A stretch of DNA of 64,000 nt from a virus: IMG/VR virus record IMGVR_UViG_3300045988_015843; one strand, 5' to 3'. The position numbers and the translations under genes are program-made. The notes below the pieces were generated by a model that saw only the letters and a list, made by a program, of their open reading frames with translations, did not search any database and was not told where the DNA came from. The first letter of the stretch is position 1. Each line of letters begins with the position of its first letter. Shown in pieces: positions 11,236 through 64,000 of this stretch.

Positions 11236-11246
11236 ACAACATACAT

Positions 11247-12191: not shown

Positions 12192-12199
12192 TATAAATA

Positions 12200-13753: not shown

Positions 13754-13766
13754 TCAATAACCAGCC

Positions 13767-15008: not shown

Positions 15009-15009
15009 T

Positions 15010-15525: not shown

Positions 15526-15527
15526 AC

Positions 15528-17594: not shown

Positions 17595-17596
17595 CA

Positions 17597-20500
17597 ATGA
17601 TAAGAGTAGAAGATAATTTATATAATGCGAACTTTCCGCAACAGAAACTACCTCTAAAGAAAAAAGATGAGTAGTGGTAGCATGACTGCGTGAATTACAT
17701 TATCGGAGAAGGTAATGTTGTATCTGGCGGAATGTAGAAGACTCGGTTTAGCGAACTTCAAACATATTACGATCTATATAATAGTATCTTTGATGAAAAG
17801 GACTTTAAACGTATAACCAACCCGTTTAAAGTATCAGACGGATTTCCTGCTACACCACAAGACTTCAACATAATTAGGCCTAAGGTAGACCTCCTTATAG
17901 GTGAAGAGACAAAGAGGCCGTTTAATTTCAGAGTTGTACGTACATCACAGGAGGCAACATCTGACTTAATGGATTAGGAGAAAGAAATGCTAATCCAATA
18001 TATGATGAGTGCTATTATGGGCAGAATGAGTCCTGAAGAGCAACAATAGTTCCAACAACAACTTTAGAGTGGTGAGATAATGCCGCCTGAAGAGATTGGA
18101 AAGTATATGCGTAGGGATTACAAAGATGTTATAGAAAACACAGCCTATCATTCTCTGATGTATATACGCGAGAAGTGTGGTATAGATAACGAGTTTATCA
18201 AAGGTTGGAAAGACGGTTTGATAGCGGGACAAGAGGTATACTATGTTGGTGTACAAAATGGAGATCCTTACATGGAACGTGTGAATCCTGTATATTTTTC
18301 ATTCGATCAGTCACCAGACCTTGAGTTTATAGAAGATGCGTCATGGTGTTGTAGAAAAATGAGACTCCCTGTAGCTGAAGTATACGACAGATATCATGAT
18401 AAGTTGTCTGAGAAAGATTTAGACAAATTAAACGAGATGTTAACAGGTCGTCCATCAAATGATCTTGGAGAAAAAGACCCTGTTGATAATTTCAATCATA
18501 TACAAATGCATATATACGATAATCCTGTTTTTGATCAGAAGACAAGACATAACATTAATGTATGGCATTGTTGTTGGAAATCGTTTAAGAAGATTAAGTA
18601 TGTTACGTTTCAAGATGAAAACGGAGATGCTTAGATTGAAATCGTAGACGAATTCTATAAACCTGTTGGAACAGAGATAGGTATTGATGAGGATTGGATT
18701 GTTGAAGTATGGGAAGGATATAGAGCCGGATCAGATTTGTATTTTGGTATACAACCGGTTGCTTATCAACATATAAGCATTGATCAACCAGATAGTCAGA
18801 AGTTACCTTATTGTGGTGCTATATATAGTAACACTAACAGTAAGCCAAGATCCCTTGTAAGCATCCTCAAGCCTTTGCAGTATATGTACATTGTATTGTG
18901 GTATAGACTTGAATTAGCAATAGCTAGGGATAAAGGTAAGGTTATCAATATGGATATTACGTAGATACCTAAATCTATGAATATTACACCAGATCGATGG
19001 ATGCATTATTTATCAAGCGTTGGTGTAAACTTCATAAATCCTTATGAGTGCTTTGATCCAGATACAGAGGTGTTGATGTACGACAGATCTGTTCGTAAGA
19101 TTAAAGATATTCATATTGGTGATAAGGTACTTGGTCCAGATGGAACTCCACGTACTGTATTGGATGAGTGTGAGGGTATCGACAAGATGTATAGAATACA
19201 CAGTGGCACAGGATGTGATGATTAGATTGTAAACAGTAGACATAAAATTTATTATACTGAATATAATCACTTTAAAAAAACATACACTGACAAGTTGGCA
19301 ACTCCATTGGAGTTGATGAAAGAGGATCTACATAAGTCGTATATAAAACAAAATCGATATTTGAAACGAGTACATCCTACTGACAATAATGTTTCTTCAA
19401 ATTTACTATTAGATCCGTATTATCTTGGATTATGGTTGGGCGATGGTTTTACAAACAGTCCTGCAATAATAAACGAAGATATAGAGGTGATTAAGTGGTT
19501 GTCAGAATATGCCGAGTCTAATGGTATGACAACAACAATCCTTTCTGATAAAAACGTTCCTGTTATATATCTTAAAAATAAGGTGTATAATCATAAGAAC
19601 CCAATAAAAGACACACTTCAATATTATGGAATCTTAAATCAAAAAGATATCCCAGATGATTACCTACATGGTAGTGTTGAAGATAAACTACAGTTAATGG
19701 CAGGTCTTATTGATACTGATGGGCATTTTTCAAAGCGTGATCGCATTTATACATTTAGCCAATGTGAATCTAGAAAACATATTGTAGACAAACTTGCTTT
19801 TATAGCAAGATCTTTAGGATTTAAATGTAGTCTACACATGTACAAAACCGCTGGTACAAAACACATATGTGGTAATAAGAGCACATGTCAAAATACATAC
19901 ACGTTACGAATAATTGATGGATTGTACGATATTCCATGTAAAATTGCTCGTAAGAAACATCATTGGGTTCAAAAGCGTACAAAACGAAGTTTGACAAATT
20001 TCAAGGTTTCGTACAGCCATATTGGAAAATACAAAGGTATCACTACAGATGGAGATCACTTCTTTGTGTTAAAAGACTTTACAGTAGTACATAACTGTCA
20101 ATGGGGTATTCCTGGCAGAGAGGGTGGTAAACCAGCTACGTTTAATCAAATAACATCACTTGATCTTACGATGAGTAATGTTATTGCGGAGTATATTCAA
20201 CTCATGGATAAGATTGAACAATTAGCTGGAACAATCACTGGTATCACAGAGCAACGTCAAGGAGCTATTAGCACATCAGAACTTGTTGGAAACGTAGAAC
20301 GATCTGTATTACAATCATCTCATATCACAGAACCCTTGTTCTGGGTACACAACCAATGTAAGAAGCACGTGTTAACAATGCTTCTTAATACAGCAAAAGG
20401 TGTCTGGGAAGAGTCTGGTAAGAAAAAGCTTCAATACGTATTTGATAATGGAGAAAGAGCATTCTTAGCAATAACAAAACAATTCTATTATGAAGATATG

Positions 20501-21130
20501 GATGTATTCGTTAGTGACACATCTAAGGATGCTGAGAACATAGCAAAACTTCAACAGCTTATTCAACCTGCAATGCAAAATGGAGCAAGCTTGTTAGAAG
20601 CAGCAGAGGTTCTTACGAATGATAACTTTAACATTATCAAACAGAAGCTTAAAGATATGCAAGATCGTCAAGATCAACTTTAGCAGCAGCAACAAGAGGC
20701 TCAGCAGCAACAAGCAATGCAACTTCAGCAGATGCAGAATGAGGCTAAAGAGCAAGAACTCATGCTTAAGGAAGCTGAAATGGATCTTCAGAGGTATAAG
20801 ATTGATGCTGATAATCAAACCAAGATTGCTGTGGCTGAAATTAGCACATATAGAGGTACTGAGGATAAGGATATCAATATGAATGGTATTCCAGATCCGA
20901 TGGAGATAGCTAAGGATGCTACACAGCAACGTAAGATAGATTCAGAAGCATATACTAAGCGTTATGAAGCTCGTCAGAAAAAGGAGATTGAAGATAAGAA
21001 GATCAGTCTTGCTAAAGAACAGATGAAACATGAAAGTGAACTTTAGAAGTAGAAAGACGACGCTGCTATGTAGAGAGAAGAGCTTAAGGCTAAGACCGCA
21101 TTGAAAAACAAAGTAGCTGGTGAACGATGA
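17597..21130 (+). CDS. portal protein interrupted by an intein (1177 aa precursor, about 828 aa after splicing, many TAG)
   Basis: ORFs 18080.., 18737.., 18977.., 19295.. and 20717.. are all in the frame of ATG 17597. The stop is TGA 21128-21130. The portal call rests on size and on position directly after TerL, as in crAss-like phages. The Q-rich C-terminus reads 'DQL*QQQQEAQQQQAMQLQQMQ'. Confidence 0.7.
19049..20095 (+). mobile_element. intein with a LAGLIDADG homing endonuclease (349 aa)
   Basis: It begins 'CFDPDTEVLMYD' (Cys1, block A) and ends 'FTVVHN' followed by Cys+1 (TGT 20096-20098). The two LAGLIDADG motifs are 'LGLWLGDGFT' and 'LMAGLIDTDGHF'. It contains one in-frame TAG (19223-19225). 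Confidence 0.85.
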
Positions 21131-23234: not shown

Positions 23235-23259
23235 TGAGAAAGATTATTAATAAAATTTT

Positions 23260-24783
23260 ATGAATAACGGTTTGTTAAACAACCTTCAGCTTTATCGCGG
23301 ACGTCGTTTCAGCGATCTTGTTGATGAGAATATGATTTCTAACGCATTGCTGACTAAGCCTCATGAGGTATCTGGTCTGCTTTCACTTGTCTTTGGTACC
23401 AAGGATGATGGTGTTTCTACAGCAATCGACTTGATTACCGGTGGTCTTGGTAAAACAATGATCATTGAGAATCGTGAGTATGAGTGGTCTGTTATGATTG
23501 ACGCTGATCACGCAGTAAATATTCGTTGGGCTAAGGCTAATGGTCAGGAGATTACTTCAGCTAATTTCGCTGATGCAACTGCTGGTCTTAACGGTGCTCC
23601 GATTTATATCGCACTTGAAGAGAAGTTCTTCGGTCCTGGTGCTATTCTTTCTTTTGACAACTATAATTTCCAGGTTCGTGTAAGCGGTCAGCCTTACCAG
23701 GACGGTAGTGCTTGGGTATACGAGTGCTATGTTGTCGATGGTTTCTCTGGTTCTTACATTCCTGGTGAGTACTTGCTTCCTGGTCGTCAGGTTAGCCGCA
23801 TGGCTTCTGCATACGAGGAGTACAGTGATGAGGAGGATATCATCAACTATCAGACCCCGTTTAAGATGCGTAATAACCTCATGACGCTTCGTCTTGGTTA
23901 TGACATCACGGGTGATGCTTATAGCACGGTATTGGCTATTGCATTGAAGGATCCTGAGACTGGTAAGACATCTTATCTGTGGTCTGATTATCAGTATTGG
24001 CTCGCTCTTCGTGAGTGGAAGAGACGCGAGGAGAAGGCTCTTCTGTTTGGTAAGTCTAATCGTAACTCTGATGGTACGTATAACCTCAAGGGTTCTAATG
24101 GTCGTCCTGTTGCCGTATCAGCTGGTCTGTTCGAGCAGGTTGCTCCGGCTAATGTACGTTATTACACGACTCTCACCGCTGAGTTGCTTGAGGATTATCT
24201 GTTTGATCTTTGCTACAATATGCTTGGTACTCAGGAGCGTAAGTTTATGGCTCTTACTGGAGAGATGGGTATCAGAGAGTTCGATCGTATTTTGAAGGAG
24301 AAGGTTGCTTCTTTCAATATGATTGATACGCACTTTGTAACTGGTTCTGGTCAGGATCTCGTTCTTGGTGGTCAGTTCACAACCTACAAGATGACTAACG
24401 GCATTGAGCTTACGCTTAAGCGTTGTGCAATGTTTGATAACATGGAGCTGTTCCGTCAGTTGCACCCGCTCACGGGTAAACCTCTGATGTCTTACACGTT
24501 CCTGTTTGTTGATCTTGGTAACCGTGATGGTCAGCCGAACATCGTTAAGGTTTGCCGTAAGGGTCGTGAGTTCGTACAGTGGTGCACTGGTGGTTCTGTA
24601 GTTCCTAGTGGCTATGCTAACAGCATCAATACGCTTCGTTCTAATAGCCGTGATGGTTATCAGGTTCACTTCCTCGGTGAGGAGGGCATTATGCTCCGTA
24701 ACCCGCTGTCTTGCGGTATCCTGTATTGCGATGCTGAGGATTCTGAGCACACGAACAACGGTGGTATCAAGAAAGGTGCCTAA
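23260..24783 (+). CDS. major capsid protein (507 aa, TAG-free)
   Basis: The size, the position (TerL-portal-scaffold-MCP order), codon-optimised appearance (GGT/CGT/CTT rich) and a strong downstream terminator are all typical of a crAss-like MCP. Not verified by search. Confidence 0.7.
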   Translation: MNNGLLNNLQLYRGRRFSDLVDENMISNALLTKPHEVSGLLSLVFGTKDDGVSTAIDLITGGLGKTMIIENREYEWSVMIDADHAVNIRWAKANGQEITSANFADATAGLNGAPIYIALEEKFFGPGAILSFDNYNFQVRVSGQPYQDGSAWVYECYVVDGFSGSYIPGEYLLPGRQVSRMASAYEEYSDEEDIINYQTPFKMRNNLMTLRLGYDITGDAYSTVLAIALKDPETGKTSYLWSDYQYWLALREWKRREEKALLFGKSNRNSDGTYNLKGSNGRPVAVSAGLFEQVAPANVRYYTTLTAELLEDYLFDLCYNMLGTQERKFMALTGEMGIREFDRILKEKVASFNMIDTHFVTGSGQDLVLGGQFTTYKMTNGIELTLKRCAMFDNMELFRQLHPLTGKPLMSYTFLFVDLGNRDGQPNIVKVCRKGREFVQWCTGGSVVPSGYANSINTLRSNSRDGYQVHFLGEEGIMLRNPLSCGILYCDAEDSEHTNNGGIKKGA

Positions 24784-45500: not shown

Positions 45501-48500
45501 AGAGTTGGAGGATTATCTGACCTTGCTCAACGACTTTATTCTGCAAAAATCGGAGTTGATGACAAAGGTTATAATCTACATGTTGGAGAATCTATTAATA
45601 CTCTTGATGATATTGCAGCAGTATCCGTAGATCAAGAAGCTCAAGATAAACTTGCTGATATATACAGACAATCATATCTCGAACAATTTAACATGGAAAA
45701 TGCCAGTGCTGCATTAGAACAGATTACTGGTACCACAAAGATTGTTAAAGATGAGAATGGAGAAGACAAAGTTGTTGTTGATAAACCGAGTGGGTTTAAT
45801 ACTATTTGGGATAAGATAAAGGAAGCTCGTAATGACAACGATGTGTTTTGGAATGAGCTTACATCTGATGCGTTTAAGACGGATGAAGAGCTTGAAGCCG
45901 ATAAAGATGCTGGTGAAGTTTATGAAAGTGGTTGGAGTAAACTACGGAATATTACCACAGAATACGCTCTCGATGAAAAAGGAGACCGTATTAAAGCGGA
46001 TGAAAACACTAAACTAAAAGACGATTAGACTGTAAGTCAGGACGGGTACGTATTAAATATAACAAAAGAGTCTCCCATTAAAGAGCGTTTGATATTTACT
46101 CCAGAAGATCAGGACGAAGTGTCGAAATCTAATGAATATCAAGAAACTATTGAAAGTATTGCACCCGATATTAAGATTGCATATGGTTATGAAAATAGTT
46201 CCAATATAGGTTTAGTAACACAACAAGTTGGCGAAGCAAAACAGCAATTGTTAGAAGCTAAAGAGTCTGAGAAGCGTGCTAAAGAAGCTGCTAGACTCAG
46301 AGCTGAATTGAAACGTAAGCTTGAGAAGGAAGCTGATGAAAAACGCAAAGCATTCATTAAATCAAATCCTAAGTACGAAGGTAAATCTAACGAAGTAGTT
46401 GATGCAGCTATTGCTAAGCATGAGAAGATAGTACAGAGACGTAAACAACGTGAACAAGAACGTGAAGCCAAGGCTCTTGCGAAGTAGATTGAAAAAAATA
46501 AGCTTACTAGAGTTGATGGTAAAGTTCATATTGATAAAAAAGGTATTTCACATAAAGTATATTAGAGAAAAGATGGTACTTATGTGACAGTACGTTGGGA
46601 CGAACTTGGTAATCTTAAACAAACAGTTGTCAATAAAAACGATATTATCTCTGAGAAACAGGGCCTTATAAACGATGCATACACAGAACTTGTCAAACTC
46701 ATAAAAGAGGTTGACGGACATAACGGCGATGTGATGCGTGCGATACTGTCTAAGATATAGATCTCAGATCTTTCAAAGAACGGTATTCTTAATACGTATA
46801 CACAGCTTTACAAACTACTAAAGGTTGCTGGTAGAGCAAACTCTATTGACATCTATGAGGCTGTTGTTATGCTTGGATATAGGTTAGCATCTACAGGATA
46901 TGTGTGGAACAGATCTATGTCTGATCACGATGTTATTGATAGCAATGATATTGAAAATGATTATGTTTAGAATGATAAGTTACGTATTGATGAACAACGT
47001 TTGAAGTCATTAGATGCTCCAATCATTTATCACAATGGCAAGATTGTAAGTAATCCTACTGCAACTGTCGAACGTGGTATGTCGTTATCAGATGCTATTA
47101 AAAAGGCTAGGTCTGGTGACAAAACGATTGTTGCTAAACTCGTTGAATACAAAAAATATCTGTCTGAAAATTTAGAAGCTGCTGTTGCAGATATACAATA
47201 TCCTGGAGATGCAAACGCGGCAAAGTTGATTGAGAAAATCGATCACGAGTTAGATGAACTAAACAAGAGTCCTGAACAGAAAAAGATCGATAAGATCGTT
47301 TCAGATAAAGGTTTAACTAAAACAGATGATGTTTATACGTACAAAGATGGTCGTCAAACACCAGTATACTTAGATAAAAATGGAAAGAAATGTATATTAT
47401 CTAAGTCTAAGAAAGGTTATCGTGTAAACTATACTGTTAAATTTGATCAGAAACCTGCAACTAAACCTGAACCTGCTCAACCAGCGCAACCTACTAAACC
47501 TATATAGCCTTCTAAACCAGAACAACCAACACAGCCTACTCAGCCTACATCTACCAAACCTGTTGATAAACCTGTAACCACGGATAAGACTACGCTTTCT
47601 CCTCAACAAAAAACTGTCGAAATGCTTGCTAAAAAACGGGCTGAAGACAAGTTAAAAGTTGGTGTTGATGGTTACGAATTAACAGGACAGGCTTATTTCA
47701 TAAAAGTTGATGGTAAAATACAACGATTCAGACGTGTTCATGCTACTATTCCTGCACAAACTTTAAATCTTAAGAGATCTATTGATCGTATGATCAATAC
47801 TTTTGAGTAGATTTATAACGAACCAATGTCTGATGAAGAGGTTGTTTAGGAGGTAGTAAACATAATAGAAGATGTCATAAAAAATGGTGCGTATGTAAAG
47901 CTCGAACGTGATCGTTGGAGCAACAGCCATGTCACAATTGTTGATTTTGAGAAACAACCAGGCCTTGAGAGACATCCGCTTTCTGCGCAAGCAATTCATG
48001 ATCTGAATGTATACTTGAAATATCTCAAAGAAGCAGGGCCGTTTAATTATGATGAGTTTTTTGGTATAGTTAGTGATGTTGCACACATCATAGCATCAAC
48101 AGAACCTGGTACATCTGTACATGTTGGTAATGTAGTAGAAGGTGTTGTTAACCATGTCGTACAACGTGTATTGGATCAAGGTTATGAAAATATTGTTGGT
48201 ACTGAAGAGCAACTTGTCGATGAAATACTTAATACAAGATCTCATGACAGTTTTAAACAATCATCAACTCCTGAATCTGGTGAATACGGATCTAACCGTA
48301 CGTATGACGAGTGGTTTAATAAAAACAGAGGCGTAGTAAAGAATCTTGTATTAGATGTATTAAGATAGCTTAAATCTTTCCACGACTTAGGTTGGGTTGT
48401 ACAATCTGAAAAGCTTACATTATATGGGGAGTTTAAAGGTGTTGGTCGTGTTGCTGGAGAACCTGATCTTATTGCTATTGATCAAGATGGTGGTATCCAC

Positions 48501-51500
48501 ATGATCGATATTAAAACATCAACAAAATCATTCTACGATGGTGAAGGTTATTCTAGTAGATATGTTGATGTTTATGGTGCTGATACATGGGGTCAGAGAT
48601 TTAGCACACAAACGCAATACTCTAATCAACAGACTGCATATAGAATGTTGATGAAAGCATCGTTAGGATTAGATACAACTGCTGAATTAATGCCGTATGT
48701 TGTAGACTACAACTACGGTACTGGACTGATATCAAATGTTGTGCTTGAGCCACGTATTCCTATTATATATTCTGATTTTATAGAGGCAATGTTCAATGGT
48801 GTGGAGTATTCAACGACTGAAAACTACACTATGATGTCTGGATTCTCTGAACGATTTGTTCAAGGTATTTTGGATACATATAATACAGCAATAGAAAATT
48901 ACAATAAAGCTGTTTCTGACTTTGAAAGTCAGGTTGGACAACTTCCCAAACAATTCATGTTTGATCTCTCTATTATTGAGTATATGACCCCTGCACAGTA
49001 TACTCTTGATGAGATTCATAGAATAGACGCAAAAGCTAAAAGGTTGTGGGATATTACGCAACAGATACATCATTGTATCGAACAAGCGTTGGCTAATGAA
49101 GAAGATAAAGCCAATGGGCAATCTACTACCGGGTCAAATCCTAAACCTTAGGCTACACCACAGCCTGAAACTAAACCAGAACCTGAAAAACAACCTAACG
49201 CTCAAACAAAGCCTAGTGAACAACCACAAGTTAAACCAAGTGATAGTTCTACAGAACCAACAGGTTTGATTAGACTTTCAGACGGTTAGGTTTATAAATT
49301 CTCAGTTAGTTTCGAGAATCCATATCCGCAGATTCAAAGCGATCGTGCTGAAAGAGATACACAGTTTGCAGCTATAATAAATGCTGCTGACTTTGGATTA
49401 CCTGAAACCACTTTTGCTACGATATCTAATACTGGTAAAAATCTCGATAAGATATAGATTAAGATAACATACGTAGATAGAAAGACTGGTAAGAAATATG
49501 AGTTTGGTAAGACTCTTCCTAATGGTAAGCGAGATTATTTGTTTATAAACTCTGGTAATAACTTACCGGGACATGACGTTACAGCAAATTTCAGAGCGTT
49601 ATATGATCTGGCTATGCAGCTCACAGAGTACAACAAAGCTAATCCTGGCAAGAAAGCTATTCTTCGTGTCACATAGTGGTATCGTACAGATGGTAGGATG
49701 ATATATAAAGAGGAGGATGGTGTTGTGTCTCGTGAAACACATCCTGTCGTAGATCCTAAACTAGGCATTATTACAGACGATCTATATCAATTTAGTGCTG
49801 AAAGCCAAGTTCCTGGTGATACACGTACAATGTTAAACGATATAGGCTTTGTAAAAGATGGCGCTGTTTATACGTATGGCGATAGTAGTACTAGACGTCA
49901 ATTAGATGTTGTACCTAAAGATATCCCTAATGGATTTATAGTATATTCTAAACGTATACCAAGAGCCGAAGCACCTGGTGGATTTAGACGTCTACCCATT
50001 GTACTAAGGAAAAGAGCCCTTTCTGACGGAGATGTTAATTTCATAATGGATGTTCTTAAGGATCCATCATTGCTTGGCCAACCTTATAATGGGTTACATG
50101 GAGCAACGATAGGTTCTATAAGTAATCTTATTTTACCTATTATAACAGACGCTAAGTACCTATCACCTCAAAAGAAGCTGTTTGTAGATCGTGCTAGCAA
50201 TACAGTTTATTATATAACTGCTAAAGAATGGAAAGATGCCAAAGACGGTGTTGGAACACTGAAGGGTTACAACATGTCTAATGAAAGTCATGTTGAAGAG
50301 TTAAAGCAAAGGATAAAAGATTTGTCTATAGAAGTTAACTCTGATATGATGCAATCTAGATTTGGTAATGACACTGATTCAAACTTACCGTTGAAAGCTA
50401 TACGAGAGTGGTTCAACGACAATCCTTCAGAAAAAACATTTACAGTTAGAGGTAGTCTTGGTAATACGTCAATATCATTTGATAGGAGTGATTTCCAAGA
50501 TCATAAGACTGATAACGGCGATGTGTATAATGGATTAAGTGGTGCTGGTTGGTATTTACGTAGTGGTATATTACAAACAAATGCTGTTGGTATTGGTGCA
50601 CCTCACGTTCACATCAACGCAGTTACTATGGACACTAAAGGATATCCGAAAAAATTGTTTAGTAACGGAGCTATTATTGATGATACTACAGAGTCAAAAC
50701 AAGAGCCCAAGACTGAAACTAAGCCTGAATTGAAAATAAATCCAGATTCGAAGAAAAAGCCACCTAAACCTAGTCCAACGAGCGGTGGTTAGAAATCTGA
50801 TTCTGCATTAGGTGCTTTATCGTCACTTCTTGACACGCAAGATGACAATCAAGTCACGACCGATAATATAGATAACCAATCTGCTGATCAACAAGCTTTG
50901 GATAATGAACAGATAGAAGACTGGGAGCTCTTTCATATTGGACGAGTTGCCACAGGTAAGACTATCAATAAAGAGAAAGCTCGTAGACACGCTGAACATA
51001 TTCTTGGAAAAGAGTTTGTTTCTGATGATAGAACATTTGGATTTATTGATGGCGTTATTAAACAATTCGACGATGGATCTGCTGTATTAGGTGTATGTAG
51101 AAAAGATTCGATAAGATTATCATCACTCGCAGAGAACGGTGTTGAATATCACGAGGCGTTCCATAGAATATTCGAGCTTATTATACCAGAGCATTTACGT
51201 GATTCTATATACGAAAAGGTTGCTGCTGACAATGACATAGATTTGAAAAACGATCCTGATTATACGAACCATCGTAAGGTTGCAGAGTTGATGGCCGATT
51301 GGTATTGGGATTATCAAGTTGGACGATTCCATGTTGATTCTTACAACATATTCGCAAAAGCTTGGAATAGAATGCGTGACTTTGCATTACGTTTCACCAA
51401 TAGATATCGTAATGATCGTGCGATATTAAAACTATTCTCTGATATACGTAGAGGTAAGTATGCATCTCGTAAAGCTAATAGTAGTGCTATAAAACGATTT

Positions 51501-54500: not shown

Positions 54501-57500
54501 TCTGCTCGTGTACAAGCGTTACGTGAACATTATCTAAAACAACAGAAGTCTGATTATGAAGAGCGCATACTTAAGATGAAACGTGACGAACGCCCTAACG
54601 AAGATGAACAGTTATATGAGCGTGAACGTATTGCATAGGATGTTGAAAATAAACTCGCTACGATGAGTGATGACGTCGTTAAGCGAGAGCTTAAGTCATT
54701 AGGTATGTTGGATATTATAGACAAGAAGTCGAAAGCTGCGTATAATAGTTATACAGGAGGCATTGATGTAAATGACGGTGCTGCATATATAACAGACGAT
54801 ATGTGTGAGATGCTTTTACGAATGGTTGGTTCGTATTCGTCAGAGGTGGCCGAAGCGTTTAAAATATTACGATCTACGTCTGTTAAAGATATGCGTTAGA
54901 TTGCAGATGCATATACTAAGGTTATAACAACTGTCATTGGTACATAGAAATATACAGCCTATGGCCGTAGGTAGGATTCTACTGGAAATATTGTAGATTA
55001 TTATCACAAATATGCGCTGTTCCCAATATTCCCAATGCTTGCAACTGGTAAATTAGGAAACATCTATAATATGATGAAAACTAATAATACCGACATGGTA
55101 TTGATTAGCTCTGCTGTAAAAGTAGGAAGCCAAGGTGCTGTAGCTAATCCTAAATGGGATGATTATCGTCAAGATAATGATAAAGATAACAAAGCTAATT
55201 ACAACAAAGACGGTTCGTTAAAGCCATTGTTTTCAGAATCATTTAAAGTCAACCCGTATTCTGTATCGTTTGAATATCTTCGTAAACAGTTAAATACTGA
55301 TCCGAATGAGAAAAAGTATATGAATATTGGTACTTAGACTACTAAGATTGCATTAACAAACTTGAATCTCCATGCACAATATTTAACAAGAAGTGGTGAA
55401 GTTAGATCTGGTTAGTAGATACATGACGATATCATGCAATCTATGAATGCTCTTAGTAATATCGGAAGAGATTAGTTACGGAGCCAATATTTCTTAACAA
55501 ACGATAAAGGATAGTTTGTTGATGAGAACGGAAATGTTGTAGATAAGCCTGTTGTAGATCCAGTTAAGTATTCGAAAGCATTAAAACAAATCATTGGTTC
55601 TGATAAAATAAGTTTGAATTTAGCTTAGGCACTACAACTTGTTCCTTATAAATACGGTAATGGTAAAACTCGTTACAGGCTCAATATGCCTTTAGATGCT
55701 GTACAATCATCTAATTTCTTAGAATCTAAGATTATTTCTAATATAAACAAGTCTGTTATTGATACTAAAACACCTGGTGCTGCATTCATACAACGCTCTG
55801 TGTGGGGTATGGAAGGTTCTACGCTATATGATAGTCGTAAAGGCAATATTGTAAGTGATGATGATATTGCTCCGTCTATAAATGGTGGTAACAGCCTTCA
55901 GATGGTTAATGAAGAGGGCTCTATGGACTGTGTATTATCAGTAGATTTCTTTACAAAGATTCTTGGTGACTTGTTCCATTATACAACTGGTGGCGATTAT
56001 ATACTCGATAGATTTGGAGAGCGTATACCAGTAACCAGAATATATAAAGGCAAGACTTTGTATAAAGTTAAATCTGCAGACATGTTTAACGAAGGTAAGT
56101 TTGTAGAAACATGGGTCGATGACATAGACAATCTTCCTGATGGTACTGAGGTAGTTTACAAGAAAAATAAAACAGAACACCATACACGTAGTTTTGATGA
56201 AGTTCGTCAATACCTGATAGATCAAGGTATGATTGGTCCTAAAGCTAAAGCTAACATTCTAGCTTATCGTATTCCTACACAGGCTCAATCATCGATCCAC
56301 GCATTAAGATGCGTTGATATATTGCCTGTTGTTAACGATACTGTAATGCTACCTGCAGAGTTTACTAGAATTACAGGATCTGACTTTGATATTGACAAAC
56401 TATATTTAACAGCTCTTAATTATCATAATAGAAAAGATGGTGGTGTATCTGATATATACGATGAGGGTACTGAAAAATATTATCAAAACAAGATTGTAGA
56501 TGCATATCTCGCATTGTTGACAGACAGAGCTGACGAGAATTCAAAACCAAGATCGTTTATATCATTACACCGTTCTATTGATAACGATACACAGTTAGCA
56601 TTTGACGCATTAAACGAAATTGGTACAACAGATTCTACCAAGACTGAACAACCATATCAATTCTACGATCTTACTACTCAGACTGGTGTTAAGAATAGTT
56701 ATATAACTGGTAAAATTGGTATTGGCCCGTTTGCATTGAACAACAATAATCACATCTTGACATGGCTATATCATGTTAGCTTTAAGCCAACTAAGAATTC
56801 AATCATGACATAGTTTGGCTTGAATAATCTTGATAATATGACAGATATAGATGGTGATTCTATAATGGGTTGGTTGTCTGCATTTATTAACGGACACGTG
56901 GATATTGCTAAAGATGCGTGGGTTTCTCGTTGTAATGTAAACCCGTTCACATACAATTTAACAAACTTGTTACTACGTACTGGTTGGGGTAAGAATACAA
57001 TATTCTTTTTACGACAACCTATTATGATGGCAATGGCTGATGCATATATGAACGCTAGTTCTGAATATATGTCAGACGGAACATCAAAGTTTAGACGTCA
57101 ACAACAAGCTATAGACGATGTTGTGTTTGGAGAAGATAGTAAATATCATCTTGAAAATGTTGTGGTTAGTGGTAGTACTGTAGCACAATGGTTAGAAGTT
57201 TTTGAAAGTAACGATCCTGAAACAGCTTAGCTTAAAAAGGGTCTTAATGAAGACTTGAAAAAGATACTGACTCGTGAAAATATGCTAGCTTAGGCTAAAA
57301 CACCTCTTGGCAAAATGGGCGATATATAGTTCCAAGCAGCTGTCTATCTTGCATACAAACAGTTCGATAAATACGCAAATGCATTGTCAAATCTAGTAAA
57401 GTATTGTAAGATTGATACTAAGAAACAGGGTAAGAGTATAGCAGAACAACTTGTTTGGTACGAAGGATACGATGATTTGTTTAACAATGGTGAAACTGGT

Positions 57501-60500
57501 GCATTGTTTAACAGAGCGTCTCTTTTAAAGCTTAGAGATGAAAGCTATGTAGGTGTTAAGACTGAAAATGCTATCAATGCTACAAAACATATTATTGAAG
57601 GTCAGTTCTTCAGTGGTTCACATTAGTTTATCAAAGCTATTGAAAATTTAAGCAAGCTTGTTGGTAATGAACATCGTTACGAAACTGTTAATTTTGTCGA
57701 AGCAGCTACAAAAGCTATTAGCGCATCGATCAAATCAGAATACTTTAATTATTATGTCAATAAGCTATTTGGTGATTCTACATACGTAAGAGATCTTGTT
57801 AATGGGAGTTCGGAGCAGCATAACGTAAGATATCATTATGATAAAAAGGCCCCTTATATCGAGGTTGATGAAGATATGATTTATCCATTGAGAACGTATA
57901 TTGGTAAACCGATAAATATTTCATGGAAGACCAAAAGCGGTTCTCAAATGAAAGCATATCCGAATGTTATCGTTGCTATTAGTGGTAATAAAGTATATCT
58001 TCAGAAGGAGATATAGTTCAATAGTAAGGGTAGAAGATCACCTCTTACTGTTGATGCCAATATAGATGTACAATTTACTCAAGGTAATAATACAATATAT
58101 GACCGCATAGGAGCTCTTAAGACTCTTATTGAGAACAACAGTGCTCTTGCAGATCTTAAAGGTAATATATTGTTGCGTGATATAATATTAGCTGCAACAT
58201 AGAAGTATACTCCATCTCATAAACGCATTGCTGGAGAAGCATCTGATACGTATGATGATCTTAAGTTCATTAAGCTTGAAACATTCTTTGAAGATAATGG
58301 AGATAAGACTGATCAGTATATTAGAGCATGGGATTCATTGCTGAGATATACTAATGATAATGAAAGATTGTAGAATGCCATTCGTAAATTAGCAAACGAT
58401 CTTGTTATATACGCATTTATAACATCTGGCGATACTAAAGGATCCACTAAATTATTCCAGTATGTACCTGATTCCTGGAGAAACGGTGAGTTTAATCCTG
58501 AAGGTGTGACATCATATGCTGAATTTATTCGTAATAAACTTGACGAGTTAAATGGTTATGGCGAAACTAAGATAGATCTTGATGATGTTATATTGAATAA
58601 CTGGCAAAATGATCAGTTTGTACCAAGATATCGTGTGGATGATAAGGCTGAATAGCAAAAGCTGACACCTATATATACTGACGGACGTAATACATATGGT
58701 TATCCTGTAGTAATTCAGGGTATGAACATTGAAAAACCTGCGGATAAAAACCATATGCCTAAGGTAAATGTTGTAATAGATCCTACAAAGGCTCCTCAAT
58801 ATATTAAGATAACCCGTGATTATAAACATCGTAATTCACAAAGACAGTATTCTATATACAAGTTCCACTCTGTTGCTCAAACTGCTGATGGAATAAGGTA
58901 TCCTATATACGTTAAAGTTGAACCAAAAGGTATTACTATAAAATCTTCTGGTGGTACGTATATGGTGACAGAATATGGTCGTTCAGACAGACTAGATAAG
59001 GCTGAGAATAGCACTATACCTGAACTGTTTGAGTTGTTATACACAGCTCAAAACTTCCAAGATCAGTTGAGAGGTATGCCTAAGAGTGATCTAAAGGATT
59101 CTAATATATTATAGGACCTTAGACGATTTGCTGAGTTGGACATGGCTGAAAAGATGGCCATCAGTCGTAGATCATATAGTGCTAATATGGACATTGCACA
59201 AACTCAATCTGTTCAATTTAATGATACAACTTAGAATGTGAATGGTGTTACTAACACTGCTGTAAATCCGCTTACTATATCTGATAAAACTGAAGCATTT
59301 GGTGTAACTGTAGATCCTAAGCTTAAATAGAATTACAAACAATGGTTAGTAGATCATCCAAATGGTATTGTTGCGTATAGGATTAATTATAATAACTTTA
59401 ATACTGCTGAAAATGTAAATAAGAATATTATAGGAAATCCATTTGATTGGTAGAAATATGGTCAAGAAAAATCACTATAGATGTTCTACGAATGGCTTAC
59501 TACAGGGACTAATCATGGCGAAGTTTTAGCTACCGATGAATATCGTAATGCTATAATCAACAAGTTGCTAAGTATAGACAAGCCTGAAATTTTATATTAC
59601 AAAGAACTTGGTCATCCTAGTCATGCAACAGTTCTTGGATATCTTATTGAACACAAAGAGCTGTTACAACCTCAATCTCAAGCAAGTACGTCTGTTACCA
59701 GTAGTGCTACTTAGACAAATGATAGACCTGTTAATATATATTTTGGCAATGGTCAAAATGATGAAAATATCGAATTAAGTAATTTTGCAATAAGGCCGTT
59801 TTCGTTTACGCCAAAAGATTTTTATTTCGGAGATGATGCTCGCGAACACCAGTTTTATAGTGTAGAATAGGCGTTTTAGTATTATAAAATAATGGTGTTG
59901 GCGTCTATGTCCGGCTCTTTAAATTATTCGATACCTACAGGTGCTCAAGAGGCTGCTAGAAAAAGTATAAGTGCAAATAGAAACATTTTATTAAAAAGAG
60001 CACGAGAGATATTAAATGCTTCAACTTCTGCGCATGCGAGATATTTAGGTAGACAGCCTCTTGGATTGTAGGATGTATCTTCTCAATTTGGAACTATTGC
60101 CTCTGCCAAAGATATTGAAAAGTCTATATTTAAAGTTTGGGATGAGAGAAGTTCAAAAATAATGAAGGCTCTTATTAAAGCTTCTTTTGAACAGAATCCT
60201 CAAGCAGCTCAAAGACTTCTCGACACTGGTAACGCTACACTCACGCATAACCAAGATAAATCTAAGTGGAAGATTGAATTCCCAAGATTGTTAATGGAGG
60301 TTCGTGATGAGTTACGTAAATCTCAAAGTAATAGTGTTGATCAAACAAGTAGTATCGTAAATATAACCAATGATCCTCAAGAAATTATTAGTCTAAACAA
60401 CGTTGTCATAAGACCATTTGTGCATACGTTCGAAGACGGTAGTAAAAAGGAATTTAAATCTATAGCACAAGCCTTTCAATATATAAAAGCAACGTATGCA

Positions 60501-63500
60501 GATCCTGTTGTTAACGAAAATATAATTAGACAGATAGAACAGACTACAGATCCTTCTGATTTAATAGACCTTGGTGAATTTATCAAACAACTTGATGTTA
60601 AGTCTTGGGATAATGATTCTTATAATATAATGACACAATTAACCAAAGAATCATTTGAACAAAATCCATCTGCTGCTAAGATTTTGACTAATGAATTACG
60701 TAAAATCGGTGTTGACACTTCAAGTAAACCTCAGAGTAATAAATCTTATAACAGTATAACAATAAGCACAGGTTATACAAAAGGTGAACCTGAGGATAAT
60801 CCGAATACAGATTATGTATTTACTGAGAACGCAGAGGCTGCATTAGCTGTATCAAGTCGTGGACACGGTCTGGATAAGAGTGGAATATTTGACCAAGAAG
60901 AATTCCCGTTCAAAGGCAGTGTTAAGTTGAACGTATCTGATGTACATCAAACTAACAGTGCTGCTGTACGTACTGACGCCAAAGGAAACATTACACAAAA
61001 TGCATACGGTATTGTTGTTAAAAAATATCAACATGATGCGAATGGTAAATTTGTAGCACAACCAGGATGTTTTGAAGATACAGATGAAGATTTTAAAAAA
61101 TTCAAATCTATCAATAATATCGTCTTTAAAGACATAGAGCAATCTAAAAACACAAACATAGTATTTCCGTCACAGATCGCTCTTGGGCGAGCTGCGTTAC
61201 CATTGCAATTTGCGGGCTGGTTACACAATTAGCTTGAGCAAAGATTTGGGTTGGAGACTAATATAGAACGATCTAAAAAAGCTTCTTACGAAGGTTATGG
61301 TTTACGTGTAATTGGAGTTGGTACAAAAACTAACACATCTGTTGATACTAACAGCCAATCTAGTACTGAAGATTCTAAACCAAAGACTAATGAAGACAGT
61401 AAGTCTGTACAACAGATTAAATTAACAGCTGGTCAAGAAACTGCTAAGAAAGCCATATTGAACTTTATAAAGACTGCAGATGCTTCCAAAGGAGAGTATT
61501 TCACTCTAACAGGTAAAGCTGGTACAGGTAAGACTACGTTAATACAAGAGGTTATTAGAGAGATTGCTAAAGACAATCCTTATCAGAGATTTGTTGTATC
61601 TGCATTAGCTCATAAAGCAGTACAAGTCATATATGGTAAGACTAAAAAGTCTTCAAAGTTTGTTTCTGCTTCAACCGTAGCATCGTTACTTGGTATGAAA
61701 TTAGATCAAGAAACTGGAAAATTCAAGCAAGTTAAAAGTGGTAAATCCAAGATTAAACCCGGTAGTATATTGTTTGTAGATGAAGCGTCTATGTTGAATG
61801 AACAGAATATAGAATGTTTAATAGATGCTGCAATAAGTAGCGATTCTAAAGTCATATTCTTAGGTGATCCTGGACAACTTCCTCCAATACGAACAGGCGA
61901 TCTCGTTAAGTACGGAACTGATTCGTTATCTCCGGTATTTAAGACCCAAAAGGATGAATACTCAGCAGGTCTTACAGAAAGAATACGACAAGGAGAAGGT
62001 AGTCCGATATTGGATTATGCAGATACGTTCTGGAACTATAGTACAACAGAAGGTTAGACTGATCGACGTGTTAATGACGAAAATATGTCTCGTGTTGAAA
62101 ACGCTCAAGGATCTATTGAGTTTATAAACGAACAACAGGTTGATAAGATAGTACCGTTATTTAAACAAGCTGTTGAAACAAACAATCCTTCATTAGTTAA
62201 GATTGTAGCATATCATAATAAAGCTGTTAAAGAGTGGAACCAAGATATTCGTCGCAGTGTGTATGGTGATGAATATAGTCCGAACCCGTTACCTGGAGAT
62301 ATTCTGATGATGACAGATACATACAATGACCCAACGTCTGATGTTGCAAAACCGTTATTGTTTAATAGTGAAGATATATCTGTAATTAGTACAGGACCTA
62401 TTCGTACAGTAGATGGTATTCAAATCATGGAGACTACTATAAAAGACGCTCGTGGCAAAATGGTCACAGTGCCTTTAATAATACCTACTGCACAGAATAT
62501 AGCTGCGTTTACTGCTCAGAAAAATAAGTTATTTAGTTATGCTAAGTCGCTAAAATCCAAGAATTATAGAGCATATCTTAATGCATTAGATACGGCTTGG
62601 AATTATGGAACAGAATGGGCTCATGTTGAATATGGTTATGCTATAACAAGCCATAAATCACAAGGTTCTACATACGATGTATCTATTGTAGATTCTGCAG
62701 ACATCAACAGTAATGAATTTATGTCAGACATCAGTAAAGCTCGTAGTATCTATACAGCTATAACAAGAGCTCGTAACTCAGCTGTTATCTTACGTGACAA
62801 GCTTGGTACTCTCGATGTTGATCTGAAACAGCTTAATGACCGTATAAACGGTTATAAAGATGGTTCTGTAACACCTCCTGCTCAGATCACACCTGATACT
62901 GTAGATAATGTAGGTAATACATATAAAGAGAATATCGAAACATTGGAGTCTGATAAAACAATATTATCTAATGAAGAGATATTGAAGCTTAGACCATTTA
63001 CTGGTAATGATAAAGCTCCTCGTATAGCTGTTGCGTCCGAACATACTGATCCTGTATTTTTTGCTAAGCATATAAAAGACTTCTTCGATGGTAAAACATC
63101 TGTAAAACGAAAGTTCGGTGATCCAATCACGGCCAAAGACATCGATGCTTTATATATTATAACAAAGCATGATGGCATTCCTTTAAGAACCATTCTTTCT
63201 ATAAAAATACCTAAGATAATACATTTCAGTATAACAGGCATGGGTGGTACTAAATATGAACCTGGTGTTATGCCATATAACGAATTACTTGATCGTATTG
63301 GTGATTATATAAAGCAAGGTCTCGATCCATCTATGGTAACAGTTCGTATTGATCCTATTATACCTGGTGTAACACCTAGACATGTTATTGAAAATATTAT
63401 AAAACGAGCGTCTTCTATGGGTATTAAGAATATAAGATTTAGTGTTATGGACTTTTACTCAACAACAGCTCAGTTTACAGAAGCTGCTGGTTTTGATTAT

Positions 63501-64000
63501 TCTAAATATTACATACCGATGAAGGGTTATGATGGTAAATAGCTTATGACATTGATATCTAGGGACGGAAGATCGTTTTATGACTCTAGTGATAAAAATT
63601 CTCCGCTCAATAGTGCTAGAGGTAGGAGAGTTGGCAACAGCATTGTTGTTACTGTGAGTTATGGAGCTGAGACGAAGATGTATGTTCGTGGCAAAAGTGG
63701 TAAAGTTTTGACGAAGACTATAAATACGTCTGAAATGACCGATGATGCCATTAAGAGTAATACTGGGTGGAATGCTTTAACTGCAGATCAAATCATACAC
63801 GACTAGGTAGCAAACAGAGTAGCTGCTGGTGTATTATTACAACCGATGTATGAAAGACACGCTCGAAAAGAGGTAATAACCAACATTGCAAAAATAGTTA
63901 AAGAATATGGAGATAAATATGGTGTTACGTTGTCGACATGTGCTGAACCAGATATTCTTCCATCTGGAATATCTCATGAGGGTTGTTTGAGCGTTTAGGC
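42501..64000 (+). CDS. giant multi-domain (polyvalent-type) virion protein ORF including the crAss-type RNA polymerase; at least 7166 codons, 3' end outside the window
   Basis: All 24 plus-strand track ORFs from 42501 to 63806 start at coordinates congruent with 42501 modulo 3, and every one ends in TAG. I read every gap in frame by hand and found only TAG, never TAA or TGA. A TAA at 42482-42484 precedes the ATG at 42501. Confidence 0.7.
47622..48700 (+). other. PD-(D/E)xK (RecB/Cas4-like) nuclease domain inside the giant ORF
   Basis: 'GEPDLIAIDQDGGIHMIDIKTS' (48465-48521) gives the D...D-x-K motif, followed by 'QYSNQQTAYRML' (a QxxxY motif). Confidence 0.6.
51150..51164 (+). other. HExxH zincin motif inside the giant ORF
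   Basis: 'ENGVEYHEAFHRIFELI'; the codons cac gag gcg ttc cat lie at 51150-51164. Confidence 0.5.
56262..56396 (+). other. RNA polymerase double-psi beta-barrel catalytic region (DxDxD)
   Basis: 'LAYRIPTQAQSSIHALRCVDILP...AEFTRITGSDFDIDKLYL'. This is the R-x-P-T...S pattern followed by DFDID (56382-56396), analogous to beta-prime 'NRAPTLH...NADFDGD' and to the virion RNAP described for crAss-like phages. Confidence 0.65.
59352..59672 (+). other. DUF4326-like domain inside the giant ORF
   Basis: 'IIGNPFDW.KYGQEKSL.MFYEWL...ILYYKELGHPSHATVLGYLIE' resembles the 'GNPF...Y..WL...L.C.C....CHa.vL' pattern as I remember it. Weak call. Confidence 0.35.
59727..60320 (+). other. NADAR-like (YbiA/DUF1768) domain, copy 1
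   Basis: 'IYFGNGQNDENIELSNFAIRPFSF...FYSVE*AF*YYK...ALIKASFEQNPQAAQRLLDTGNATLTH...LLMEVRDEL' follows the NADAR pattern (LSNF..PF, SxE.YFQ..K, LL.TG...L). Confidence 0.55.
60352..60700 (+). other. NADAR-like domain, copy 2
   Basis: 'IVNITNDPQEIISLNNVVIRPFVH...FKSIAQAFQYIKA...QLTKESFEQNPSAAKILTN' is paralogous to copy 1. Confidence 0.5.
61440..62800 (+). other. SF1 (Dda/RecD/Pif1-like) helicase domain inside the giant ORF
   Basis: Walker A 'TGKAGTGKTT' (about 61509-61538), Walker B 'ILFVDEASML', 'FLGDPGQLPPI', 'YAITSHKSQGSTYDVSIV' and 'IYTAITRARNSAVIL'. Confidence 0.7.
63010..64000 (+). other. DUF1848-like domain inside the giant ORF (truncated by the window)
   Basis: 'IAVASEHTDPVFFAKHI', 'YIITKHD', 'IHFSITGMGGTKYEPGVMP', 'VTVRIDPIIPG', 'IRFSVMDFY' and '...LSTCAEPD...HEGC' parallel DUF1848 landmarks ('ISASRRTDIPAFY', 'FWTKNP', 'FTxTxYGxxxEPNVP', 'WRYDPI', 'ISFVDxY') recalled from memory. 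Confidence 0.45.

Follow-up and report, generated by a model that had tools for sequence, protein, structure and literature searches.

A giant TAG-recoded virion RNA polymerase protein with a C-terminal array of NADAR, DUF7831-like, helicase and DUF1848 modules in a crAss-like phage

The IMG/VR virus record IMGVR_UViG_3300045988_015843, analysed here over a stretch of 64,000 nucleotides (the window), ends within a giant open reading frame whose last part (59352-64000) seems to join several unrelated enzymatic domains to a virion RNA polymerase (vRNAP). This raises the questions of whether these domains are real, whether they belong to a single protein, and what they may do for the phage. The features of the giant frame upstream of the array are the following:

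42498-63998, plus strand: giant ORF with TAG recoding, 7,167 codons or more, continuing past the window end
51141-51176, plus strand: HExxH motif (VEYHEAFHRIFE), read from the sequence; candidate gp65-type zincin protease
56376-56405, plus strand: vRNAP catalytic motif GSDFDIDKLY, aligned with TGSDFDIDKMY of PDB 6vr4 (phi14:2 gp66)

The first-pass annotation had read 59352-64000 as one frame with TAG coding for glutamine, and this was borne out. Indeed, the 42498-63998 frame, which includes nt 59352, contains 52 in-frame stops, all of them TAG and none TAA or TGA, and 11 of these TAG codons fall in the 59352-64000 segment. Relatives that are not recoded have Gln aligned with the TAG codons of the window; in the conserved columns of the relatives, Gln is found opposite TAG in 10/10 sequences at nt 59877 and in 7/7 at nt 55335, and less uniformly at nt 59451 and nt 59478 (4/6 in both cases). 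Judged from the relatives, the ORF would end about 105 aa beyond the window. TerL, portal, MCP and virion proteins are coded upstream on the same strand, and the giant ORF, which codes for both the vRNAP module and the array at its C-terminus, is the final gene of this late/structural block. Homologous giant CDSs are present in Suoliviridae, and the nearest database matches are from Suoliviridae (Delta group). The source is accordingly read as a crAss-like gut phage with TAG-to-Gln recoding, and the array as the C-terminal accessory part of its giant vRNAP protein.

The module preceding the array in the same frame carries a DFDID motif (nt 56382) and, as judged from sequence comparison, is a genuine crAss-type virion RNA polymerase: the whole region matches PDB 6vr4 (phi14:2 gp66) with E=9e-18 and the catalytic motif aligned, the identity being about 25-30% and confined to local stretches. 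The gp66 protein is packaged, translocated, and transcribes ssDNA, not dsDNA (Drobysheva et al.); presence in the virion and translocation into the host have been demonstrated for phi14:2 and crAss001 only. By extrapolation from these distant phages, through the gp66 homology of the upstream module, we infer that the C-terminal array is packaged in virions. Fused gp65-66-67 polyproteins are described as "likely cleaved", and gp65 contains a zincin domain (Drobysheva et al.); the candidate HExxH zincin of the giant ORF, whose region (nt 51141) gave no Pfam match in the profile scan, could process the polyprotein.

Profile searches of 59352-64000 recovered the NADAR, SF1 helicase and DUF1848 domains that had been annotated. 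Comparison with IMG/VR relatives revealed that the array is two-tiered, comprising an invariant helicase-DUF1848 core, found in 7/7 relatives, and a hypervariable cassette of NAD/ADP-ribose-related modules:

59229-61337, plus strand: variable cassette, about 703 aa, with DUF4326-like, NADAR1, NADAR2 and DUF7831-like modules
59289-59675, plus strand: DUF4326-like module, remote, invariant cysteines lost
59724-60326, plus strand: NADAR1, phage-type NADAR with the full catalytic set and two insertions
59862-59888, plus strand: NADAR1 E-x6-K motif, VEQAFQYYK, two of its Gln residues coded by TAG
60234-60254, plus strand: NADAR1 LTH motif, the His of ATLTH being the third catalytic position
60354-60710, plus strand: NADAR2, degenerate copy with motif IAQAFQYIK, Ala at the catalytic Glu position
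60747-61322, plus strand: DUF7831-like alpha/beta domain, from transitive profile matches and a fold match

The 59229-61337 region is a 2.1-kb presence/absence cassette located between polymerase and helicase. It is missing in three relatives (L003, L005 and L007), whose flanks are 92-98% identical to the window over 977 aa upstream and 81-86% over about 890 aa downstream, and it is partly present in L004, L006 and L008. Such gain and loss among near-identical phages is the pattern expected of arms-race cargo. A second variable slot, containing an ART-PolyVal domain (58.4 bits), was found in the next giant ORF of the relative L010. The array modules other than NADAR2 have dN/dS values of 0.11-0.37, indicating purifying selection on all but NADAR2.

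The two NADAR modules, annotated as a tandem pair, both score above the gathering cut-off of Pfam NADAR PF08719 (35.1 bits) and match phrog_1017; however, the second copy is degenerate. NADAR1 (38.2 bits; 2e-14 with phrog_1017) has a family profile that matches PDB 8bau (E=1.1e-10) and YbiA (2b3w, 1.5e-9). Its E, K and H align with E43, K50 and E125 of Pn, with a Glu-Lys spacing of seven residues, and FPRLLMEVRDEL aligns with the C-terminal helix of YbiA. In characterized NADARs the catalytic Glu and the phosphate-binding Lys are E88/K95 in EcC7 and E43/K50 in Pn, and the third catalytic residue, on the last strand, is Glu, Asp or, in phage NADARs, His (PMC11543638, PMC11125620). Thus, despite two sizeable insertions, NADAR1 appears catalytically complete and looks active. 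NADAR2 reaches 40.8 bits but covers only profile positions 14-116 of 163; in the alignment it lacks the TLTH...FPRLLMEVR segment, that is the C-terminal third, where the third catalytic residue and the final helix are located; its catalytic Glu is replaced by Ala. Its dN/dS against L008 is 0.94, versus 0.28 for both neighbouring modules in the same comparison. On these sequence features NADAR2 is best read as a decaying NADAR duplicate, and a functional NADAR pair is contradicted.

The proposal that the NADARs counter DarT-like defences is reasonable for NADAR1, which keeps Glu, Lys and His and lies in a presence/absence cassette, but not for the pair. Indeed, the phage NADARs T4 AdfN, Bas32 and Bas60 have been found by experiment to reverse DarT1 guanine ADP-ribosylation (PMC11257639, PMC11543638), and by analogy with these proven anti-DarT1 enzymes such a role is plausible, limited to NADAR1. 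In one in-vivo assay DarT1 toxicity was not rescued by T4 NADAR (PMC11125620), so counter-defence is not guaranteed by NADAR activity; moreover, Iyer et al. 2022 argued that most phage NADARs act on soluble ADPr derivatives, not on DNA adducts (PMC9503650).

The DUF4326-like assignment is weakly supported. The module has no Pfam match even at E<=10, while hhalign of its family (A5) against 30 real PF14216 proteins gave 78.6% probability (E=1.7e-5), with GNPF, Y/F..WL and PxHAxVL aligned. The CWC..PC(H) motif of DUF4326 reads YYK..PS(H) in the window, all three invariant Cys being gone and the His alone retained, so that the chemistry may differ or be lost; the dN/dS is 0.11-0.28. Being below the Pfam threshold and devoid of the invariant cysteines, the module was not accepted as a full DUF4326 member and is referred to as DUF4326-like. 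DUF4326 belongs to the rhodanese-phosphatase clade and is fused with NADAR, SLOG and Macro domains in DNA viruses (PMC9503650).

The domain of about 170 aa left unassigned in the first-pass annotation (60700-61232) is real and conserved, with boundaries that become 60747-61322, and transitive profile matches together with a fold match assign it, at the level of sequence and model, to DUF7831. The window sequence has no direct Pfam match; its profile retrieves, at E of about 1e-15 to 1e-18, proteins scoring 34-45 bits on PF25176 (cut-off 27 bits), which is matched by 18/40 of the co-family proteins. In all, 199 clusters were retrieved, mostly within giant proteins. The AF2 model has a pLDDT of 89.8, and in Foldseek against BFVD the top 6 matches were all DUF7831 proteins (probability 0.94-1.00, TM 0.46-0.55); the search against PDB gave no significant neighbour. 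A TARG1/DarG macrodomain was considered and rejected (Foldseek E=0.41, TM 0.21; hhalign probability 0.03%). DUF7831 stands next to NADAR in 12/17 proteins and also accompanies ART-PolyVal and SLOG (cpYpsA).

Downstream of the cassette, the invariant core comprises:

61416-62801, plus strand: Dda/RecD-like SF1 helicase, all SF1 motifs legible
61512-61538, plus strand: helicase motif I, GKAGTGKTT
61593-61619, plus strand: helicase motif Ia, VVSALAHKA
61770-61793, plus strand: helicase motif II, LFVDEASM
61857-61889, plus strand: helicase motif III, FLGDPGQLPPI
62643-62672, plus strand: helicase motif V, ITSHKSQGST
62751-62774, plus strand: helicase motif VI, YTAITRAR
63018-63998, plus strand: DUF1848 module, cut by the window end, complete in relatives

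The complete SF1 motif set noticed initially was confirmed by motifs I, Ia, II, III, V and VI and by matches to the Pfam profiles AAA_30 (2.4e-22), AAA_19 (5e-20) and UvrD_C_2 (8.8e-9) and to the Dda-like PHROG 325 (2.2e-77). The DUF1848-like domain also held: the truncated window copy scores 34.1 bits on PF08902 when scanned alone (cut-off 30.5) and 30.2 bits, slightly under that cut-off, inside a 1,549-aa query, while the complete L003 copy reaches 68.4 bits (E=1e-18). This orthologue, 84% identical, has a C-terminal cysteine cluster, CACYGG..C..SC.FCYAHH, before which the window copy ends. The cluster is taken as radical-SAM-like, and DUF1848 would presumably act on nucleic acid in an Fe-S-dependent manner. 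The stretch 63510-63860 is an insert, about 115 aa long, that is specific to the clade, and the module matches RTasDUF1848 of PADLOC (2.7e-22). The UG25/DRT defence reverse-transcriptase systems are the only known context of DUF1848 (Mestre et al. 2022, PMC9226505; PADLOC).

Helicase and DUF1848 had been viewed as suited to the protection or repair of incoming DNA. This gained no support, both being part of the invariant core and not of the variable cassette. Since the crAss vRNAP depends on single-stranded DNA as template, it is more likely that the helicase opens the duplex for the vRNAP, a role that is better grounded than repair. In other crAss-like phages related SF1 enzymes have genes of their own, annotated as DNA helicases, so the helicase may also serve in replication.

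The explanation that we favour, and consider somewhat better than evenly probable, is that of a two-tier injected array. By analogy with phi14:2 gp66, the giant protein would be synthesized late, enter the virion and leave it together with the DNA, with proteolytic processing probably occurring before or during ejection. The helicase would most likely unwind the incoming genome to provide a single-stranded template for the vRNAP, and the cassette would come into play as soon as infection begins: N-glycosidic ADP-ribose adducts would be hydrolysed by NADAR1, for example guanine-ADPr produced on ssDNA by DarT1-like host enzymes, while the DUF4326-like and DUF7831 domains would process related ADP-ribose products. 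According to a more specific proposal, which seems rather unlikely as a whole, the array may be an early-transcription protection unit, in which the helicase makes the ssDNA template that is also the DarT substrate, the tethered cassette erases lesions in cis, DUF7831 represents a new ADP-ribose-processing family with a fold absent from PDB, and the cassette is swapped to match the ADP-ribosylating defences of Bacteroidales hosts.

The substrate of the cassette might instead be diffusible: NADAR1, DUF4326-like and DUF7831 would jointly degrade NAD/ADPr-derived signals or toxins (cyclic ADPr isomers, or ADPr phosphates from host TIR, SLOG or ART), not ADP-ribosylated DNA. The removal of terminal phosphates from ADPr products that Iyer et al. 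propose for DUF4326 (PMC9503650) fits this reading, as does the co-occurrence of DUF7831 with cpYpsA SLOG domains besides NADAR. However, all phage NADARs tested hydrolyse guanine-ADPr on DNA (PMC11257639, PMC11125620), the DUF4326-like module is devoid of the invariant cysteines, and tethering to polymerase and helicase would make more sense for a substrate on DNA than for a diffusible one; we consider the small-molecule substrate unlikely. That helicase, DUF1848 and cassette are replication/repair enzymes, freed by proteolysis and acting late in the producing cell rather than injected, appears quite unlikely. Related SF1 helicases (DNA helicase, Dda, RecD) exist as separate genes in crAss-like and unrelated phages, an SF1 helicase is among the conserved crAss genes (Yutin 2021), and the HExxH motif and low-complexity linkers of the giant ORF are compatible with processing; yet the ORF closes the late structural block and continues in frame from a polymerase of a type known to be packaged, late synthesis would be too late for a replication helicase, and a cassette that is present in some phages and absent from others does not resemble a core replication function.

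NADAR1 might also be an antidote or timer for an ADP-ribosyltransferase injected by the phage itself, as DarG is to DarT. NADARs do act as ART antitoxins (PMC11543638, PMC11125620), one relative carries ART-PolyVal in the adjacent giant ORF, and ART-PolyVal co-occurs with DUF7831-containing proteins. This idea is very unlikely, given that the giant ORF of the ART-bearing L010 is devoid of NADAR, L003 has neither, and, the second giant ORF of the window phage lying outside the window, no ART-NADAR pairing was seen. As for a chimeric assembly, or a pseudogene in decay opened by the TAG=Q assumption, the degeneration of NADAR2 and an apparent frameshift in the L010 helicase would be in keeping with it, but it is effectively refuted by an architecture common to seven independent contigs and by the purifying selection on the remaining modules; 21.5 kb without TAA or TGA and the alignment of TAG with Gln in non-recoded relatives also speak against it.

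Parts of this organization are known from other phage systems. The giant multidomain "transcription block" proteins phi14:2 gp66 and fused gp65-gp66-gp67 (Drobysheva et al., PDB 6vr4; Yutin et al. 2021) share with the giant ORF the DFDID motif and its flanks, and crAss-like gp65-gp66-gp67 polyproteins also share TAG-to-Q recoding in late genes and the location after the structural genes. In contrast, gp66 is a 2,180-aa protein without a NADAR, helicase or DUF1848 tail, and no description of the C-terminal array of about 1,650 aa with its variable cassette was found in the accessible literature on gp66 and crAss-like polyproteins. NADAR1 has the fold and the Glu-Lys spacing of T4 gp30.3/AdfN and other phage NADARs (PMC11257639, PMC11125620) and of the DarG1 NADAR antitoxin (PMC11543638), with His at the third position as in phage NADARs. 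Those enzymes are small standalone early proteins, produced once infection has begun, whereas NADAR1 is part of a late-made, presumably pre-packaged giant protein, has two insertions and precedes a dead duplicate. The idea of head-packaged ADPr processing that is put to use upon injection, and the vicinity of DUF4326 to NADAR, recall the virion-packaged ART, Macro, NADAR and Nudix enzymes of Iyer et al. 2022 (PMC9503650); those are mainly from myoviruses and "typically standalone", whereas here the domains belong to a polyprotein built on a vRNAP, and the invariant cysteines are gone from the DUF4326-like module. The helicase resembles T4 Dda and RecD-like SF1B enzymes in its full SF1 motif set and its PHROG 325 match but, unlike Dda, a free replication/recombination helicase, shares one polypeptide with a virion RNA polymerase and DUF1848. 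Likewise, DUF1848 is of the same family as RTasDUF1848 of UG25/DRT (PMC9226505), including the C-terminal Cys cluster seen in L003, but it resides in a phage virion polyprotein, has the insert (about 115 aa) and lacks an RT or methylase partner.

The closest parallel is provided by the polyvalent proteins (Iyer, Burroughs, Anand, de Souza, Aravind 2017, PMC5512222), in which one huge polypeptide, encoded with virion genes, carries many unrelated enzyme domains. They contain 2-15 disparate domains, and here RNAP, NADAR, DUF7831, SF1 helicase and DUF1848 are in one frame; predicted injection with the DNA and variable domains are further similarities, and the candidate zincin-type motif, as well as the ART-PolyVal of the next ORF of L010 (an ORF outside the window here), would be in line with the hallmark processing and effector domains of polyvalent proteins. 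Polyvalent proteins are delivered at injection; for the giant ORF the association with virion genes is genomic, and delivery is suggested by the gp66 homology. The text of that work does not mention NADAR, DUF1848, DUF4326 or DUF7831, and the scaffold differs, being here a crAss-type two-barrel vRNAP from a podovirus-like Crassvirales phage with a recoded genetic code. The array is thus a variation on the known strategy of injected polyvalent proteins, and not a new type of system.

The C-terminal modules that a first-pass annotation placed at 59352-64000 are real: a single frame runs from nt 42498 through the final complete codon in the window, and its 7,167 codons include 52 in-frame stops, all TAG (no TAA, no TGA), 11 of which lie inside 59352-64000. 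The reading of TAG as glutamine is upheld by comparison with non-recoded or independently called relatives at conserved columns, where glutamine was found in 10 of 10 at nt 59877, 7 of 7 at nt 55335, and 4 of 6 at both 59451 and 59478, in agreement with the TAG-to-Gln reassignment published for Delta-group crAss-like phages (PMC7886860). Two overlapping ORFs of at least 120 aa in other frames or on the opposite strand, at 60931-61311 (+) and 62882-63304 (-), were dismissed as spurious in view of the purifying selection on the main frame and its profile support. The modules, which are separated by Ser/Thr/Gln-rich linkers shorter than those of the N-terminal half, are as follows.

Modules at the C-terminal end of the giant ORF
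59289-59675, plus strand: DUF4326-like module; no Pfam hit; hhalign probability 78.6%, E=1.7e-5
59724-60326, plus strand: NADAR1; Pfam 38.2 bits (cut-off 35.1); catalytic E/K/H intact
60354-60710, plus strand: NADAR2; Pfam 40.8 bits, partial; catalytic Glu changed to Ala, C-terminal third absent
60747-61322, plus strand: DUF7831-like domain; transitive profile hits and fold match
61416-62801, plus strand: SF1 helicase; AAA_30 2.4e-22; PHROG Dda-like 2e-77
63018-63998, plus strand: DUF1848; 34.1 bits (cut-off 30.5); cut by the window end

In-frame TAGs are unevenly distributed among the plus-strand genes: besides the 52 of the giant ORF, there are 13 in the portal gene and seven in TerL, and none in the major capsid protein ORF (23254-24783, +) or in two ORFs at 12197-15008 (+). 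The relative L009 (IMGVR_UViG_3300045988_102799) has no in-frame TAG in the 4,382 codons of 2-13150, compared with 17-34 in the relatives L003-L008, indicating that the genetic code switches inside this phage group. Despite the pervasive recoding, ARAGORN detected no suppressor tRNA(CUA) within the 64-kb window; it reported a tRNA-Val at 8454-8530 and an odd 93-nt tRNA at 6439-6531 (+), with no identity called and a four-base anticodon.

Genes for TerL, the portal, the major capsid protein and large structural proteins of the virion lie upstream on the same strand, which places the giant ORF at the end of the late/structural block. At the DFDID motif (nt 56382) and on either side of it, this ORF matches gp66, the virion RNA polymerase of phage phi14:2 (PDB 6vr4, E=9e-18), and the catalytic motifs of the two align. 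The only phage records having the non-helicase parts of the region in common come from Suoliviridae crAss-like phages, whose giant CDSs measure 4,551-6,386 aa. Pfam gave no match over the 5,700 aa upstream of the module array. An HExxH motif (VEYHEAFHRIFE) at 51141-51176 (+), inside the giant ORF and lacking Pfam profile support, is a possible equivalent of the zincin protease of gp65; in related phages, fused gp65-66-67 polyproteins, to which gp65 contributes this protease, are thought to be cleaved (Drobysheva et al.; review PMC10136315). Low-complexity linkers rich in Pro/Gln/Thr/Lys/Glu (about 47448-47597, 49128-49247 and 50688-50777, +) split the N-terminal half of the ORF into blocks. 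Elsewhere in the window, near 4-5 kb, the GC skew reverses its sign and minus-strand ORFs give way to plus-strand ones (1-4446 versus 4660 onward), which marks the boundary of divergently transcribed gene blocks. The portal gene (17573-21130, +; PHROG portal 1e-147) carries an in-frame interruption of about 300 aa (protein residues ~497-800), which looks like an intein that harbours a homing endonuclease, given its LAGLIDADG-type motifs (LGLWLGDGF, LMAGLIDTDGHF) and its Cys...His-Asn-Cys boundaries; it also matches terminase PHROGs, presumably through the inteins of those terminases.

Both NADAR domains are recovered by Pfam and assigned to phrog_1017 in PHROGs. A profile of the copies from the window and its relatives, used to place the catalytic columns, matches solved NADARs (8bau, 1e-10; YbiA, 1.5e-9); single-sequence PDB searches with either domain were uninformative. 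NADAR1 has its Glu and Lys seven residues apart in VEQAFQYYK, retains the C-terminal helix and has a His at the position of E125 of Pn-NADAR (E43/K50/E125), a variant of the third catalytic position described for phage NADARs (PMC11543638, PMC11125620). The dN/dS of NADAR2 is 0.94 (window versus L008, estimated from 119 codons only), against 0.28 in both flanking modules and 0.11-0.37 in every other module. The functional pair initially proposed is not borne out: since NADAR1 keeps E/K/H, whereas NADAR2 has Ala at the catalytic Glu, has lost its entire C-terminal third and shows this high dN/dS, the sequences point to one competent copy and one decaying duplicate.

The segment between NADAR2 and the helicase is indeed a domain, as first noted, and it can now be assigned as DUF7831-like. 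A word-indexed search returned only 11 close homologues, while a full profile search yielded 199 clusters, mostly within proteins of 1,000-6,000 aa, in which its position varies, and short distant members of this set score 34-45 bits on Pfam DUF7831. An AF2 model reached pLDDT 89.8 from a 54-sequence alignment (38.9 from 12 sequences), and its best six Foldseek matches in a viral library are all DUF7831 proteins (probability 0.94-1.0), from phages, including the crAss-like cr272_1 and cr131_1, and giant viruses. The PDB Foldseek search found no significantly similar structure; TARG1/DarG held the top ranks and, together with a loose motif resemblance, had suggested a macrodomain, which was rejected (E=0.41, TM about 0.2, hhalign probability 0.03%). 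A literature search for DUF7831 found no papers. For the DUF4326-like segment, a consensus probe was checked on PF14216 (118 bits), real members were gathered and profiles were aligned with each other; GNPF, Y/F..WL and PxHAxVL align, but all three invariant cysteines are replaced. The module, by its sequence a remote DUF4326 relative, probably has altered chemistry and is still under purifying selection.

The complete SF1 helicase set is confirmed by Pfam (also AAA_19 and UvrD_C_2), and all six motifs are directly readable. DUF1848 likewise exceeds its cut-off for the part inside the window; in L003 (84% identical) the ORF continues for about 105 aa past the point where the window ends, through a Cys cluster to a TAA, and the complete module scores 68.4 bits. 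PADLOC matches it to RTasDUF1848, the accessory protein in a reverse-transcriptase defence system (PMC9226505); a literature search gave only an incidental mention of DUF1848, with no structure or activity, a single-sequence PDB search was uninformative, and NCBIfam reported nothing above threshold on the modules. In this clade DUF1848 holds an insert of about 115 aa (63510-63860, +), which neither L009 nor the Pfam model has and for which no significant similarity was found. In the further relative L010, the giant ORF is broken within the helicase by an apparent frameshift (11986-12232), for which assembly error, programmed frameshifting and decay are all conceivable.

Helicase and DUF1848 occur in all seven IMG/VR relatives and are adjacent, helicase first, in six. 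The segment 59229-61337 (~703 aa), the cassette from the DUF4326-like to the DUF7831-like module, is absent from L003, L005 and L007, although over the 977 aa before it they share 92-98% identity with the window; L004 has just its DUF4326-like part, and L006 and L008 have one NADAR, not two. The order of modules differs in L009 (DUF1848-NADAR-helicase) and cr272_1. The DUF7831-like profile retrieved 157 proteins; 17 of them have both this domain and NADAR, side by side in 12, and the set of helicase, NADAR, DUF7831 and DUF1848 recurs in permuted order in other giant proteins; further companions are ART-PolyVal, cpYpsA SLOG and the T4 gp30.3 NADAR family.

Orthologues of gp66 are packaged, translocated into the host and transcribe early genes, using single-stranded or denatured DNA and not native double-stranded DNA (Drobysheva et al.; review PMC10136315). 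Most plausibly, the polymerase would receive its single-stranded template from the invariant helicase delivered along with it. The alternative of a replication or repair function late in infection, with no injection of the array, is considered unlikely, and an artefact or pseudogene is effectively excluded by the seven independent contigs and by purifying selection.

As for the variable cassette, we infer that it may be arms-race cargo against NAD/ADP-ribose-based immunity, with the putative activity of NADAR1 as its best-understood component: phage NADARs reverse guanine ADP-ribosylation by DarT1 and rescue phages (PMC11257639), and single-stranded DNA is the substrate of DarT enzymes (PMC11543638). 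A literature search on DarTG in Bacteroidetes yielded nothing informative. Degradation of soluble ADPr-derived signals by this cassette, in line with Iyer et al. 2022 (PMC9503650), is less likely. It is highly improbable that NADAR1 is an antidote to an ART of the phage itself. In these relatives, the next giant ORF downstream has a variable slot of its own: L010 ORF2 (13854-20318) contains a 430-aa insert, with ART-PolyVal at 58.4 bits and a weak match to GNAT, that is missing from L003 ORF2 (11335-18348), with flanks 67-89% identical; L003 ORF2 has no Pfam match, thus ART-PolyVal is not universal in the clade.

The array and the ART-PolyVal slot of L010 resemble, in their properties, the polyvalent proteins (Iyer et al. 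2017, PMC5512222), a text that leaves NADAR, DUF1848 and DUF4326 unmentioned. Taken singly, the ingredients are already known: giant vRNAP polyproteins of crAss-like phages, injected polyvalent proteins, counter-defence by phage NADARs and fusions of DUF4326 with NADAR. No description was found of NADAR/DUF7831/helicase/DUF1848-type modules fused to a crAss vRNAP, of a two-tier layout in which a swappable ADPr cassette accompanies an invariant core of helicase and DUF1848, of a dead NADAR duplicate, or of DUF7831 and DUF1848 in a crAss vRNAP/ADPr context.

The locus provides testable candidates for the role of the thousands of non-polymerase residues in giant "transcription block" proteins: a NADAR, catalytically intact by sequence, that would be packaged together with the polymerase; a helicase as a possible answer to how a polymerase dependent on single-stranded DNA starts on a double-stranded genome; and a recurrent four-module set found in many other giant phage proteins. 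The presence and absence of the cassette in otherwise near-identical genomes could link cargo to host defence content, and DUF7831 and DUF1848, domains of unknown function, gain a context in NAD/ADP-ribose conflict.
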